Below, one piece after another: positions 13,197 to 16,847 of a stretch of 64,000 bases of DNA. Below the pieces are notes generated by a model. That model had not been told where the DNA came from, did not search any database, and saw nothing but the letters and a program-made list of their open reading frames with translations. Source of the DNA: Mycobacteriales bacterium (GTDB lineage: Bacteria; Actinomycetota; Actinomycetes; JAFAQI01); contig DATJSI010000050.1 in the NCBI GenBank assembly GCA_035504215.1, forward strand, positions 8,340 through 72,339, given 5' to 3'. Each line of letters starts with the position of its first letter. Within the stretch, counting starts at the first letter, position 1. The translations under genes were made by a program, and so were the position numbers.

Positions 13197-13223
13197 GGGT
13201 AGTGGGTCAGTTTGAGCGGGACG
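13197..13223. repeat. left terminal inverted repeat (IR-L) of the insertion
   Basis: GGGTAGTGGGTCAGTTTGAGCGGGACG; its exact reverse complement occurs at 16348-16374. Confidence 0.8.
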
Positions 13224-13262
13224 TTTCTGGCGATGCTTGACCGCTCACGCTAGCCTTGAAGC

Positions 13263-13415
13263 ATGGCCAAGACAGCAGTAGCGGCCGGCGACCCCGGTGA
13301 CTGGTTCGCGCTCATCCTGATCCTAATCTCGCTCGGCATCCTGCCTGGCAAGTGGAAGGGCACCGTATCGGGCGCGGCGACTCTGTACTGGATTTGGAAG
13401 AGGTTCGGCGAGTGA
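13263..13415 (+). CDS. 50-aa hydrophobic peptide with one predicted transmembrane helix (below ORF-track size cutoff)
   Basis: Hand translation MAKTAVAAGDPGDWFALILILISLGILPGKWKGTVSGAATLYWIWKRFGE. The TGA stop overlaps the GTG start of the next ORF (GAGTGA). Located just inside IR-L. Confidence 0.4.
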   Translation: MAKTAVAAGDPGDWFALILILISLGILPGKWKGTVSGAATLYWIWKRFGE

Positions 13416-13645
13416 CGCCGAAGCGTCCCCGTGACCTGAACCAGCTCGCGGCCAGGCTAGTCGAACTAGCCACCGATCCGGACGCCGAGGACACGCCCGA
13501 CACCGGCAAGGACCCAGCTGCGGTTAAGCTCGGACGACGGGGAGGGCTCAAAGGCGGCCGGGCCCGCGCCGACAAGCTCACCGCGGAGCAGCGCAGCGAG
13601 ATCGCCAGGAAGGCCTCCGCCGCTCGGTGGAAACGCGACCGCTAG
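13412..13645 (+). CDS. small basic protein (~77 aa) with C-terminal K/R-rich motif GGLKGGRARADKLTAEQRSEIARKASAARW; putative nucleic-acid-binding
   Basis: The in-frame ORF track starts at 13352. GTG at 13412 is preferred because a GGAAGAGG RBS lies 8 nt upstream and it is coupled to the preceding peptide stop. The C-terminal motif recurs in many small bacterial proteins (recalled from memory). Confidence 0.55.
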   Translation: MTPKRPRDLNQLAARLVELATDPDAEDTPDTGKDPAAVKLGRRGGLKGGRARADKLTAEQRSEIARKASAARWKRDR

Positions 13646-13694
13646 CGCTGGTAGCATCCCACCGATGTAATTCAATCCGGATGGGGGTGCCCGC

Positions 13695-14471
13695 GTGGCC
13701 AGGACCTCATCCGATGACGCGATTGACCTGCCCCTCCGCTATCCGACCTCTCTGATCCACGTTGACGAGAGCGGGTCACGCGCGAGCAGGGAGCAGTTCT
13801 TCGTTGTGGGCGCCGTCAAGGTCCGCGAGTCTGGCCAACTGGCTCGGACCATTCGTGACGTGCGCGACCGCAACAACTTCGAGGGCGAGTTCAGGTTCAG
13901 CACGATCTCGCGAGGGAAGCTGGCCGTCTACTACGACCTGATCGACCAGCTTGAGCAGTCGGACGCCCACTTCGCGGCGTGTGTGGTCGACCGAAGCACT
14001 GGGGCAGATCCCTTCGCGTCCTCCGTGCCGCCATGGCGGATTCACGCTCGGGTAACAGCGCAGCTCCTGCGAGCGTGCATCAATCGACGCGAGGTCGTAT
14101 CGGTGTTGCTCGATAGCATCTCGACCCCAAAGGGTTGCGCGCTTGACGACACAGTGCGCGGGATGGTCAACACCCAACTGGGACGCACTGCCGTCGTGAC
14201 GGCTGCGTGCCTCAACTCCAGGACCAATGATGGCTTGCAGGTGGCCGACCTCGTCGCGAGCGCCATCGCATTCGACCGCCGCAAGGGGTGCCTTACGAAG
14301 GACAAACACCCCAATTCACACAAAGCTAAGGTGGCAGCGCGCCTTGCCACCGCGTTCGGCATTAGCTCGTTCGATGACGTGCACACCGAACGGGTGAACA
14401 TCGCCACCTACCGCCGGCGAGCGCCTGTGCGGCTCGCCACAGTCGAAAAGATTCCGCGCCTGACTGGTTGA
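13695..14471 (+). CDS. DUF3800-family protein
   Basis: 258 aa. N-terminal LIHVDESG and C-terminal GLQVADLVASAI match the conserved DESG...QxADL signature of DUF3800 (recalled from memory). GTG start. A GGGGG purine tract lies upstream. Confidence 0.6.
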   Translation: MARTSSDDAIDLPLRYPTSLIHVDESGSRASREQFFVVGAVKVRESGQLARTIRDVRDRNNFEGEFRFSTISRGKLAVYYDLIDQLEQSDAHFAACVVDRSTGADPFASSVPPWRIHARVTAQLLRACINRREVVSVLLDSISTPKGCALDDTVRGMVNTQLGRTAVVTAACLNSRTNDGLQVADLVASAIAFDRRKGCLTKDKHPNSHKAKVAARLATAFGISSFDDVHTERVNIATYRRRAPVRLATVEKIPRLTG

Positions 14472-14717
14472 GATTTCTCCGATTCGGGCGATACTCTGTA
14501 TGTGCGGCTTGAGCTTCGGGCTCACATCTGCACGTTCGGGCTTGAGCTTCGGGCTCACGGCCCGGAGAACTAGGGCTTGTAACGGCCTCCCACAGACAAC
14601 AACGACGAAGCGTCTCGTCAGAACTGGCGGGGCGCTTCGTCGCGTCTGCGCGCCCCCACGCAACTGCGAACGCCAGGAGGTTGACTTTCCCTAAGCGGTC
14701 AAGCATAATGGTCAGTA

Positions 14718-15583
14718 TGAACAAGCTGAGTCCGGAGAAGCGAGCGCAGGTCATCGGCTGCCTGGTCGAAGGCATGAGCATCCGAGGCACCGTCCGGACC
14801 ACAGGAGTAGCCAAGAACACCATCGTCAAGCTGCTTGTCGACCTCGGCGACGTCTGCTCCTACGCGGCGAACGAACTGCTAGTCGACGTCGAAGCCAAGC
14901 GCGTCCAGTGCGACGAGATCTGGTCCTTTTGCTACTCCAAGCAGAAGAACGTCCCCGAGGACAAGATCGGTGAGTTCGGGTACGGCGACATCTGGACGTG
15001 GACCGCTATCGACGCCGACACGAAGCTCGTCATCAGCTACCTAGTCGGGGACCGTTCCAGCTACTCGGCGCATCGGCTCATGGAGGACGTGTCCTACCGG
15101 GTCACGGGCCGGATGCAGCTCACCACCGACGGGCACAACGCCTACCTGAACGCGGTCGAGGACACGTTCCACGGCGACATCGACTACGCGCAGCTCGTGA
15201 AGATCTACGACGCTCCCAGCGGCCAGGACAACGAGCGTCGCTATTCGCCGGCTGTCTGCACCGGAGCCGACAAGCGCCGGATCAACGGGCACCCGGACGA
15301 GAAGCACATCAGCACCAGCTACGTGGAGCGCCAGAACCTCACTATGCGGATGAGCATGCGCCGGTTCACCCGGCTCACGAACGCGTTCAGCAAGAAGGTG
15401 GAGAACCTCGCCGCCGCCGTGAGCCTGCACTTCGTGTATTACAACTTCGCTCGGCCGCACCAGACGCTCACGAAGGCGAACGGCGGACGCCCGACCACCC
15501 CGGCAATGGCGGCAGGAAAGGCGTCCCGAGTTTGGACACTTGCCGACATCGTGCGCCTTCTGGACTACCAACTGCCGGAGTGA
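14718..15583 (+). CDS. IS1-family (ISMhu11-like group) transposase, single ORF
   Basis: N-terminal HTH (MNKLSPEKRAQVIGCLVEGMSIRGTVRTTGVAKNTI). DDE region (QCDEIWSF, WTAIDADTKL, LTTDGHNAY). C-terminal ERQNLTMRMSMRRFTRLTNAFSKKVENLAAAVSLHFVYYNFARPHQTL, typical of actinobacterial IS1-family transposases. The ORF track starts at 14681. A TTGACT-17-CATAAT promoter suggests a leaderless start at the ATG near 14718. Confidence 0.7.
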
Positions 15584-15699
15584 CCGGCGAGCCTCCACCA
15601 TCCGAACGTGTGTTCGTCGTAACTTCCCAGGCATTGGAGCCCCGGCGCGGCTGCAACCGCCCGGGGCATGGACCCCATCTTGTAAGGAGATGAGGACGT

Positions 15700-15975
15700 A
15701 TGAGTAAAAGGATCGTCGCCGTCCGCAAGAGTCGGTACGGCCACGGCCACCTCACCGAGGCCGGTATCGGCACGGTTCACGGTCGCCCCGCCTACTGGGA
15801 AGGCGTCGACACGGTGCGAGCGAACCTGGCCTCGCAGACCTACTACACGGTGAGTCCGACGTCGGGAGCGGTGGCCTACGTCCATCGGGTCACCTGCGAG
15901 TGCGGCGTGAAGACCATCCAGACCGACGGCGACCGGTGGCGCGACAACAACCTGGACAACCTGCCCACCTACTGA
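15700..15975 (+). CDS. DUF3892-family small protein
   Basis: 91 aa MSKRIVAVRKSRYGHGHLTE...YYTVSP..AYVHRV...TDGDRWRDNNLDNLP, matching DUF3892 hallmarks (recalled). Strong SD AAGGAG 8 nt upstream. AT-rich leader. Confidence 0.55.
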   Translation: MSKRIVAVRKSRYGHGHLTEAGIGTVHGRPAYWEGVDTVRANLASQTYYTVSPTSGAVAYVHRVTCECGVKTIQTDGDRWRDNNLDNLPTY

Positions 15976-16298
15976 TCAAGGTCCGGCACGATGGACAACG
16001 ACTGGAGTCGTGGCATTTCCGGTCGCGGCTTCAGTTCGTCCTCAGCGCGGTCGGGGAAGGCTGCGTATCCCATCGCGACCGCGATGCAGTCCGCGATGAA
16101 CGGCACCACGTGCTCAGCGGTTCCGACGGGCAGCTCGATTGCGATCCTGTCGTCCAGCGCCAGATAGATCTGTCCCCCCGGTTGCGGCGTCGCCGACAGG
16201 TAGGGGACGCGCCGCCCGCGCAGCACGACCGCGTGCGCCCGGAACGGGCCGATGAACTCCAGGTCGCTAAGCGCCGGGAGGTCAGAGTCGACGCTCAT
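15969..16298 (-). CDS. hypothetical protein (109 aa), convergent with and overlapping the DUF3892 gene by 7 nt
   Basis: ORF MSVDSDLPALSDLEFIGPFRAHAVVLRGRR.... An AT-rich promoter-like region (TCATTAT, ATGTAATTC motif) lies immediately upstream, inside IR-R. No recognisable family. Confidence 0.4.
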   Translation of the reverse strand: MSVDSDLPALSDLEFIGPFRAHAVVLRGRRVPYLSATPQPGGQIYLALDDRIAIELPVGTAEHVVPFIADCIAVAMGYAAFPDRAEDELKPRPEMPRLQSLSIVPDLDQ

Positions 16299-16347
16299 CG
16301 GCGCGATAATGACATCAATGTAATTCGATCCTTGGGTCCGACGCGCC

Positions 16348-16374
16348 CGTCCCGCTCAAACTGACCCACTACCC
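16348..16374. repeat. right terminal inverted repeat (IR-R) of the insertion
   Basis: CGTCCCGCTCAAACTGACCCACTACCC, the reverse complement of 13197-13223. The first mismatch is at the outermost flanking base. Confidence 0.8.
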
Positions 16375-16514: not shown

Positions 16515-16847
16515 TCACGACCAGCCACACACCACGAGCTCGACCGACCCGAGGGTGATGCCGGCCAGCGCGAGGCCCCGGCCGCGGTCGCCGTTGTGCC
16601 GGATCTGGCGGACCGCGATGATGCCGAACACCAGCCCGAGGACGCCGCCGAGGAACGGCAGGATGCTCAGGGCCACCGCACAGCTGGCGGCGCCGATCGC
16701 GAACCCGTTCATGCTCGGCCGCGCCGGATACCCGTACGGCGGGTAGCCGTAGCCGACCGGGCCGCTGGTGGCCGCCGCATAGACCGGCGGCCGCTGCCAA
16801 CCGGGCGGGGCTGCGTAGGGAGGTTGCGGACCGGGCTCCGGGGTCAC
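16515..16847 (-). CDS. DUF4190-family membrane protein (Pro/Tyr-rich N-terminus, two TM helices)
   Basis: 110 aa with PPYAAPPGWQRPPVYAA...GYGYPPYGYP followed by AIGAASCAVALSILPFLGGVLGLVFGIIAVRQIRHNGDRGRGLALAGITLG. Confidence 0.65.
   Translation of the reverse strand: MTPEPGPQPPYAAPPGWQRPPVYAAATSGPVGYGYPPYGYPARPSMNGFAIGAASCAVALSILPFLGGVLGLVFGIIAVRQIRHNGDRGRGLALAGITLGSVELVVCGWS

Follow-up and report, generated by a model that had tools for sequence, protein, structure and literature searches.

Two small genes that run toward each other and share their last nucleotides raise the question of whether such an arrangement is accidental or marks a functional unit and, in the latter case, what kind of unit this might be. 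The genes considered here lie in a 64,000-nucleotide (nt) stretch of DNA from a Mycobacteriales metagenome-assembled genome (MAG; GenBank assembly GCA_035504215.1, contig DATJSI010000050.1, positions 8,340 to 72,339), which we call the window and by which positions are numbered unless another locus is named. The region is part of a high-GC actinobacterial chromosome and the genes are situated between the rpsL-rpsG-fusA-tuf cluster and rpoC. One encodes a DUF3892 protein of 91 amino acids (aa) and the other, on the opposite strand, is an open reading frame (ORF) of 109 aa; both are enclosed by the terminal inverted repeats (IR-L and IR-R) of an IS1-family element. The results presented below make it very probable that the two genes form a conserved, autonomous and mobile cassette, that the 109-aa protein belongs to a new family and that the geometry of the pair is under selection.

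High-GC genomes yield many long spurious ORFs, and in this case an ORF of 154 aa on the plus strand covers the same DNA as the 109-aa gene. Together with the lack of a match in Pfam, NCBIfam or PADLOC, these facts might suggest that the 109-aa ORF is spurious and its overlap with the DUF3892 gene coincidental. However, the GC contents of its first, second and third codon positions (the last designated GC3) are 0.73, 0.44 and 0.84, with a GC3 of the coding type. In a comparison with the 82%-identical orthologue from a related locus, L001, the ratio of nonsynonymous to synonymous substitution rates (dN/dS) is 0.10 for the 109-aa frame and 1.8 for the antisense frame that overlaps it. A word-indexed search returned only five relatives; a profile run against 1.84 billion cluster representatives returned 401 matches with E <= 1e-3, of which 150 have E <= 1e-10, for a family size of about 400 clusters at 50% identity. 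The residues G17, P18, G28, P32, R51, A69, A73 and G77 are near-invariant in this family, and AlphaFold2 (AF2) predicts a confident core. Coding signature and homologues together rule out a spurious ORF, the residual probability of which is negligible; judged by these signatures the 109-aa ORF does encode a protein and represents a new family. Its members occur in Actinomycetota MAGs and on predicted actinophage contigs. No Pfam match was found for the window protein, for 99 members or for 10 longer or fused members, and NCBIfam, PADLOC and a sequence search of the PDB gave none for the 109-aa protein. A family that had no Pfam model is thereby defined.

The relationship between the two genes can be judged from other loci, all of which derive from MAGs or metagenomes and in which genes were called with a simple GC3-based caller. 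In each of the distinct non-viral loci with enough DNA (26/26), a member of the 109-aa family and a DUF3892 gene are convergent. Pairing holds for all of the four closest homologues (L001-L008), for four distant homologues on long contigs (L009-L013), each with a 4-nt overlap, and for 17 of 17 distinct loci with room for a partner among GTDB species-representative genomes (L014-L032). These GTDB loci are all from MAGs and include Acidimicrobiia, Thermoleophilia, Actinomycetes and one member of the Dormiibacterota. Over the 26 pairs the 3' ends overlap by up to 18 nt or are separated by up to 8 nt. Some overlap is present in 20 of them and in 15 it is exactly 4 nt (CTAG, TTAG or CTAA, the two stop codons having the central TA in common), while the orthologous pair of L001 has the same 7-nt overlap as the window. 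The control consisted of about 30 other convergent neighbours from these loci, which lie up to 2.6 kb apart, mostly by more than 150 nt, and only 3 of them abut or overlap. Taken singly, such a pair would be nothing unusual in a genome, since overlap itself also occurs elsewhere in these sequences; the signal is that it has been kept between partners of only about 40% identity. Its recurrence across loci is not due to chance, and the tail-overlap layout appears clearly to be under selection. No description of a convergent, overlapping DUF3892 layout was found in the searchable literature. The distance matrices of the two families are correlated (r = 0.77, permutation p <= 2e-4), which shows that the partner sequences have been co-inherited and would be compatible with co-evolution. 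The original prediction had described an unknown 109-aa ORF that overlaps the DUF3892 gene tail-to-tail by 7 nt and may form a module with it. The overlap proved exact (15969-15975), and a lack of homologues and of a coding signature, which would have spoken against the prediction, was not observed; the co-occurrence with DUF3892 agrees with it as well.

Table 1. Coordinates of the gene pair, of the element that carries it and of related features. Positions are those of the window unless a locus is named.
Feature	Location	Strand	Remarks
DUF3892 gene	15700-15975	+	91 aa; stop TGA at 15973-15975
109-aa gene	15969-16298	-	Stop TAG read from 15971 to 15969; unannotated new family
Tail-to-tail overlap	15969-15975		7 nt, CTACTGA, both stop codons inside
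Shine-Dalgarno site AAGGAG	15684-15689	+	10 nt 5' of the DUF3892 ATG
AT-rich spacer	16299-16347	-	49 nt, between IR-R and the 109-aa ATG
Hairpin-prone stretch	15995-16054		Within the 3' part of the 109-aa gene, 20-80 nt beyond the DUF3892 stop
IR-L of the IS1-family element	13197-13223		27 nt
IR-R of the IS1-family element	16348-16374		27/27 complementary to IR-L
97-aa basic protein gene	13352-13645		Left end of the element
DUF3800 protein gene	13695-14471		Match to PADLOC candidate PDC-M04A
IS1-family DDE transposase gene	14681-15583	+	Pfam DDE_Tnp_IS1, 8.2e-08; NCBIfam transpos_IS1, 9.5e-19, below cut-off
Small basic protein, L001	4075-4262		Related to the 97-aa protein of the window
Small basic protein, L033	564-782		As above
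Small basic protein, L122	2032-2268		As above
Viral 109-aa homologue, L118	3983-4273		
Viral 109-aa homologue, L117	1268-1609		
Viral 109-aa homologue, L121	3986-4303		

Inspection of the sequences upstream of the two genes reveals a difference in their signals for expression. The strong Shine-Dalgarno site ascribed to the DUF3892 gene is present (Table 1), and most partner DUF3892 genes in other loci, where start codons are approximate, have a comparable purine-rich site; in the 109-aa genes this feature varies, and inspection of the sequence upstream of the window copy revealed none. A promoter-like, AT-rich region had also been proposed just inside IR-R. The spacer there is indeed AT-rich and contains the minus-strand, -10-like hexamers CATTAT (16311-16306) and TACATT (16322-16317). 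A scan for the two sigma-70 hexamers found no full promoter in it. The -10-like motif TGTCATTAT ends 7 nt 5' of the 109-aa ATG; its proximity to the start codon and the absence of a Shine-Dalgarno site would be compatible with an mRNA whose leader is short or lacking altogether. The same spacer contains a copy of a 14-nt sequence, ATGTAATTCRATCC, which is located 20 nt upstream of the 109-aa start and is oriented opposite to that gene (16318-16331). The only other copy in the 64 kb is also within the element, 17 nt upstream of the DUF3800 start (13665-13678). This sequence, which is absent from 112 related loci, may be an operator or promoter element.

The DUF3892 protein matches the Pfam profile PF13031 over all of its positions (1-71 of 71) with 26.5 bits, above the cut-off of 22.3, and PF13031 was recognised in all 120 of its listed relatives. 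It has no other match in Pfam, NCBIfam or PADLOC. In the DUF3892 clade that accompanies the 109-aa family, H17, C66, C68, D78, N84 and T50 are invariant and H15, N83, L85 and L88 nearly so. The residues H15/H17 and C66/C68, in the arrangement H-x-H ... C-x(1-5)-C, probably represent a His2Cys2 metal site. DUF3892 is less well conserved than the 109-aa protein, with a dN/dS of 0.26 compared to 0.10 and a mean pairwise distance of 0.63 compared to 0.56. The domain has been predicted to be linked to immunity, being associated with CapH/CapP operons (10.1101/2022.04.27.489752) and fused to Min-Wnt effectors (10.1101/2025.01.14.632903). It has been proposed to act as a sensor module in conflict systems (10.1101/2022.04.27.489752; 10.1101/2025.01.14.632903) and to resemble RNA- or ribosome-binding folds (10.1101/2025.01.14.632903).

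The confident part of the AF2 model of the 109-aa protein consists of a four-stranded antiparallel sheet (residues 22-57) followed by a helix (58-75), in which A69, A73 and G77 form a small-xxx-small motif. The N-terminus and a Pro/Arg-rich C-terminal tail, with the conserved residues H81, P82 and P96, are predicted with low confidence. Most of the invariant positions in the family are G, P, A or V and there are no conserved catalytic-looking residues. A folded core with a tail of this kind would be compatible with a binder or neutraliser. Since the alpha/beta cores of both the DUF3892 and the 109-aa proteins are confidently predicted, the models point to soluble rather than membrane proteins; neither fold was matched by a solved structure. 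Some family members are longer. Tandem duplication of the 109-aa domain within one polypeptide was observed in P0026, P0048, P0053, P0067 and P0089 and in L113 (4001-4633), and because of it we suggest that the domain is normally dimeric. These more distant relatives belong to integrase-linked operons of lower GC content, which are made up of unknown genes and lack DUF3892. In P0081, P0092, P0151 and P0196 there are N- or C-terminal extensions that resemble zinc ribbons (CxxC...CxxC). No fusion to an enzymatic domain was seen among the family members.

The element that carries the pair in the window is delimited by the two repeats and measures 3178 bp (13197-16374). No shuffle reproduced a match such as that between IR-L and IR-R, and no target-site duplication was recognised at the ends. 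The transposase scores 68 bits with the NCBIfam IS1 model, for which the cut-off is 100 bits, and is 79% identical in aa sequence to its counterpart in L001. With the DUF3892 and 109-aa genes lying between the terminal repeats, the pair is located as passenger genes of an IS1-type element would be. The GC3 of the element genes is 0.77-0.87, and because this is lower than in the flanking housekeeping genes tuf, fusA, rpsG and rpoC (0.94-0.96), a foreign origin, as had been suggested for the DUF3892 gene, is plausible. In L001 (435-4343) a related element occupies the same rpsL-proximal site. The transposase, DUF3892 and 109-aa genes have been kept (76.6% nt identity) and the left cargo has been swapped, the DUF3800 gene (PDC-M04A) of the window being replaced by one for a 521-aa ATPase (PADLOC HEC-04). 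An 18-nt core of the repeats, GGTAGTGGGTCAGTTTGA, also bounds related elements in L001, L005, L011 and L033. The IS1-family element appears in this way as a shuttle for candidate defence genes, which differ from one related genome to another although the rpsL-proximal site is the same.

A priori, the pair might serve the element itself, either by antisense control of the transposase from a promoter close to IR-R or by providing cofactors for transposition. It is inside the repeats and directly downstream of the transposase gene, toward which the 109-aa gene reads inward from IR-R; it has stayed with the transposase in L001, and the IS1 elements of L005, L011, L033 and L083 carry it as well, often right at the repeat. 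All told, an IS1-family transposase or the 18-nt repeat core adjoins the pair in the window and in L001-L003, L005, L011, L033 and L083. Most pairs, however, have no IS1 transposase within 5 kb, with none in the 17 evaluated genome loci or in L006, L009, L012 and L013, and where the pair does reside in an IS1 element its position and orientation vary (L033, L011). The pair is carried also by IS1595, IS4/5-type and IS21 elements and next to integrases: of the 102 neighbour proteins in the 17 genome loci, the largest numbers matched the Pfam families DDE_Tnp_1 (6), IS1595 transposases (4), phage integrases (4) and DUF772 (3), with single matches to IS21 and ISAZ013. In L012 the pair stands alone between guaA and housekeeping genes (cupin/M23), with no mobile gene nearby. 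An IS1-specific accessory module is rejected as a general explanation, and we consider a role of this sort very unlikely. The pair is found independently of IS1, which is one of several carriers, most copies having either a different transposase or integrase or no mobile gene beside them; it is cargo rather than part of the element core and is not specific to the transposon of the window. The original prediction of a second two-component module in this cargo holds in so far as a conserved pair with DUF3892 does lie within the repeats, but the pair is not restricted to this transposon and the partnership is asymmetric.

This asymmetry is evident from a reverse search in which metagenomes were queried with the 'DNNLDNL' clade of DUF3892, to which the resulting co-occurrence figures apply. 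The 109-aa partner was present in 38 of 80 loci, at a spacing of -21 to +8 nt except in one family at +98 nt, and about half of the loci were without it, including approximately 35 that had enough room. A different convergent partner beside these solitary DUF3892 genes was considered and rejected, as the candidate ORFs lacked a coding signature. The 109-aa gene is found alone in another setting. Of the eight IMG/VR loci (L116-L123), whose viral status is based on the IMG/VR classification and, for some neighbours, on PHROG matches, six encode a 109-aa homologue without DUF3892, and several of these copies are co-directional among phage genes. In L118 the homologue has on one side an endolysin gene and on the other the gene, upstream of lysis genes, for a phrog_5313 protein of unknown function; L117 and L121 have PHROG-positive neighbours and L116 an integrase. 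The viral copies are full length, are interspersed with cellular ones and share 65-81% identity with the paired copies of L015, L017 and L031, the stand-alone homologues reaching 72-81%. On viral contigs DUF3892, from either of the partner clades, was encountered less often, in three loci, of which two contain the same pair and one a solitary gene. A search with tblastn gave no match for either protein in cultured genomes and plasmids, nor for the 109-aa protein in GenBank phages. The solitary phage copies suggest a possible relation of defence and counter-defence.

These data may be accommodated by the following model. DUF3892, which is probably metal-binding, and a cognate partner of about 100 aa would constitute an autonomous, horizontally mobile two-protein cassette, in which the proteins most likely act on each other in the manner of a toxin-antitoxin (TA) or abortive-infection module; such a module would also help the mobile DNA that carries it to persist. 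In the polarity that we prefer, DUF3892 would be the sensor or effector and the 109-aa protein the neutraliser or modulator, and phages would have captured the 109-aa gene by itself as a countermeasure. The convergent, stop-sharing layout would keep the two genes inseparable. We infer the protein-protein interaction, the conflict function, the polarity and the antisense coupling described below from the genomic evidence. By analogy, the pair most resembles TA and abortive-infection modules: the proteins are small, strictly linked and co-varying, their mobile carriers are varied, the neighbouring defence-candidate cargo is swapped, solitary copies occur in phages and one of the domains is suspected of a role in immunity. 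The solitary phage copies, the binder-like architecture of the 109-aa protein and the invariant His, Cys, Asp and Asn residues of DUF3892 would favour the 109-aa protein as the neutraliser. A conflict module with this polarity is our tentative preference, at somewhat less than an even chance, and several observations count against it. Neither protein has homology in Pfam, NCBIfam or PADLOC to a known toxin, antitoxin or defence protein, and neither predicted fold resembles a solved structure. The co-variation of the two families may reflect co-inheritance alone. About half of the DUF3892 clade has neither the partner nor a coding-like substitute, which would be awkward if DUF3892 were toxic by itself, and in classical systems the stronger ribosome-binding site and lower conservation of DUF3892 would fit an antitoxin, not a toxin. 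Finally, the hairpin signal presented below is modest and confined to some loci.

Some of these observations would favour the reversed polarity, with the 109-aa protein as the harmful or effector component, derived perhaps from a phage protein for host takeover, and DUF3892 as an abundant neutraliser. On this view a DUF3892 gene without its partner would be an orphan antidote, and the copies that phages carry alone would serve as weapons. This would account for the fact that the non-viral 109-aa gene is never without DUF3892, which is itself often solitary, and it agrees with the usually stronger Shine-Dalgarno site of DUF3892, with the absence of one from the 109-aa gene of the window and with the greater conservation of the 109-aa protein. 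The distant tandem-domain relatives in integrase-linked operons without DUF3892 point in the same direction. On the other hand, the 109-aa family has no conserved residues of catalytic appearance and possesses a floppy tail of the binder type, whereas the invariant His, Cys, Asp and Asn of DUF3892 are what would be expected of an active or metal site. In addition, an unguarded toxin would be costly for the phages that carry the solitary homologues, one of them on a contig with an integrase. We regard the reversed polarity as rather unlikely, though not to be neglected. A role outside of conflict may also be envisioned, for instance that of a small metal-dependent regulator of stress or translation together with its modulator, the mobile context being incidental. 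The copies that reside among housekeeping genes with no mobile gene near, as in L012, and the proposed likeness of DUF3892 to RNA- or ribosome-binding folds (10.1101/2025.01.14.632903) are in keeping with this. Nevertheless, the distribution of the pair is patchy, with no conserved chromosomal position, its composition in the window is foreign, its neighbours are rich in transposases and integrases, and it has homologues on viral contigs, all of which make a purely cellular function distinctly unlikely.

To return to the preferred model, the layout has consequences at the RNA level. Since the stop codons are shared, the two mRNAs are necessarily complementary at their 3' ends (over at least 7 nt in the window), and there is no intergenic room for a terminator. 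Because the mRNAs are antisense at these ends, transcription of one gene is proposed to lower expression of the other, through collision of polymerases, formation of an RNA duplex or both. In the hairpin-prone stretch within the 109-aa gene, a 60-nt window (15995-16054) has a folding z score, relative to dinucleotide shuffles, of -2.67 on the DUF3892 strand and -2.06 on the opposite strand. Across 24 loci, 60-nt windows centred about 50 nt past the DUF3892 stop gave mean values of -1.54 and -1.04 on the DUF3892 and other strands, respectively, compared to -0.1 to -0.4 in control windows. These values hint at a hairpin embedded in the gene, which might act as a terminator or as a nucleation site for an RNA duplex. 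A terminator scan found only a weak 6-bp hairpin with G-U pairs immediately after the 109-aa stop, within the DNNLDNLP codons, and this was not relied on. In its fullest form the model would be that of a hybrid conflict module, in which antisense transcription of the convergent genes sets the ratio of DUF3892 to neutraliser and actinophages carry a stand-alone neutraliser. We think it unlikely that all of these features hold together; if they did, type I-like RNA coupling would be combined with type II-like protein neutralisation in a class not previously described.

Comparison with known systems is informative in this regard. As in type II TA and abortive-infection modules, two small, strictly linked and co-varying protein genes are carried in a patchy fashion on transposons and integrase-linked DNA, and one partner occurs by itself on predicted phage contigs; orphan antitoxins are known from phages. 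Unlike type II modules, however, the pair is convergent with shared stops in the window and at every related locus, rather than a co-directional operon; neither protein falls in a known toxin or antitoxin family by Pfam, NCBIfam, PADLOC or PDB sequence and fold comparison; and no DNA-binding domain that might serve autoregulation was recognised in the pair. Type I systems such as bsrG/SR4 of B. subtilis (PMC3834814) also consist of convergent genes. Their RNAs are complementary at the 3' ends, which in bsrG/SR4 is responsible for RNase III-dependent decay of the toxin mRNA (PMC3834814); in the window the shared stops would impose complementarity over at least 7 nt. In the present case, though, both partners are protein-coding and under purifying selection (dN/dS of 0.10 and 0.26), with no non-coding antitoxin, and proteins of 91 and 109 aa take the place of a small hydrophobic toxin peptide. 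The pair differs from type II systems in operon structure and known families and from type I systems in having a protein for each partner; it would therefore belong to neither type and represent a new variant in architecture. With the CapH/CapP and Min-Wnt systems (10.1101/2022.04.27.489752; 10.1101/2025.01.14.632903) it has in common the PF13031 domain and variable or mobile contexts, but it lacks a fused effector and its partner is of a different, unannotated family. A Pfam scan of the element ORFs found no helix-turn-helix (HTH; CapH-like) and metallopeptidase (CapP-like) pair, only a weak, sub-threshold HTH in the transposase, and no such regulators were present among the 25 commonest neighbour families. 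In PADLOC-DB 2.0 neither the DUF3892 nor the 109-aa protein has a match, and only the neighbouring DUF3800 protein does (candidate PDC-M04A). The element is like other IS1-family elements with passenger genes in having an IS1-type DDE transposase, extra genes inside its terminal repeats and variable cargo that matches models of candidate defence genes. It is unlike them in the low score of its transposase and the lack of a recognised target-site duplication, and in that the pair extends beyond this IS family. DUF3892, an uncharacterised domain previously only predicted to function in immunity, gains a strictly linked partner family, and the stop-sharing layout, kept between partners that are about 40% identical, offers a test case for gene orientation as a regulatory device in conflict modules of two genes.

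Several minor features of the element and its surroundings were observed. Between the element and rpoC there is a gene for a small membrane protein with DUF4190 (16515-16847, minus strand); its presence at the equivalent place in a related contig assigns it to the host backbone rather than to the element. In L001 (402-461) two IS1-type ends stand back to back with 6 nt (TGATCT) between them, which suggests that a second related element was inserted in tandem with, or nested beside, the first. A small basic protein with the motif LGRRGG.KGG.ARA..LT.EQRSEIA.KA..ARW, for which Pfam and NCBIfam gave no match, is retained at the left end of related IS1 elements (Table 1), and a similar protein adjoins one of the 109-aa homologues on viral contigs.

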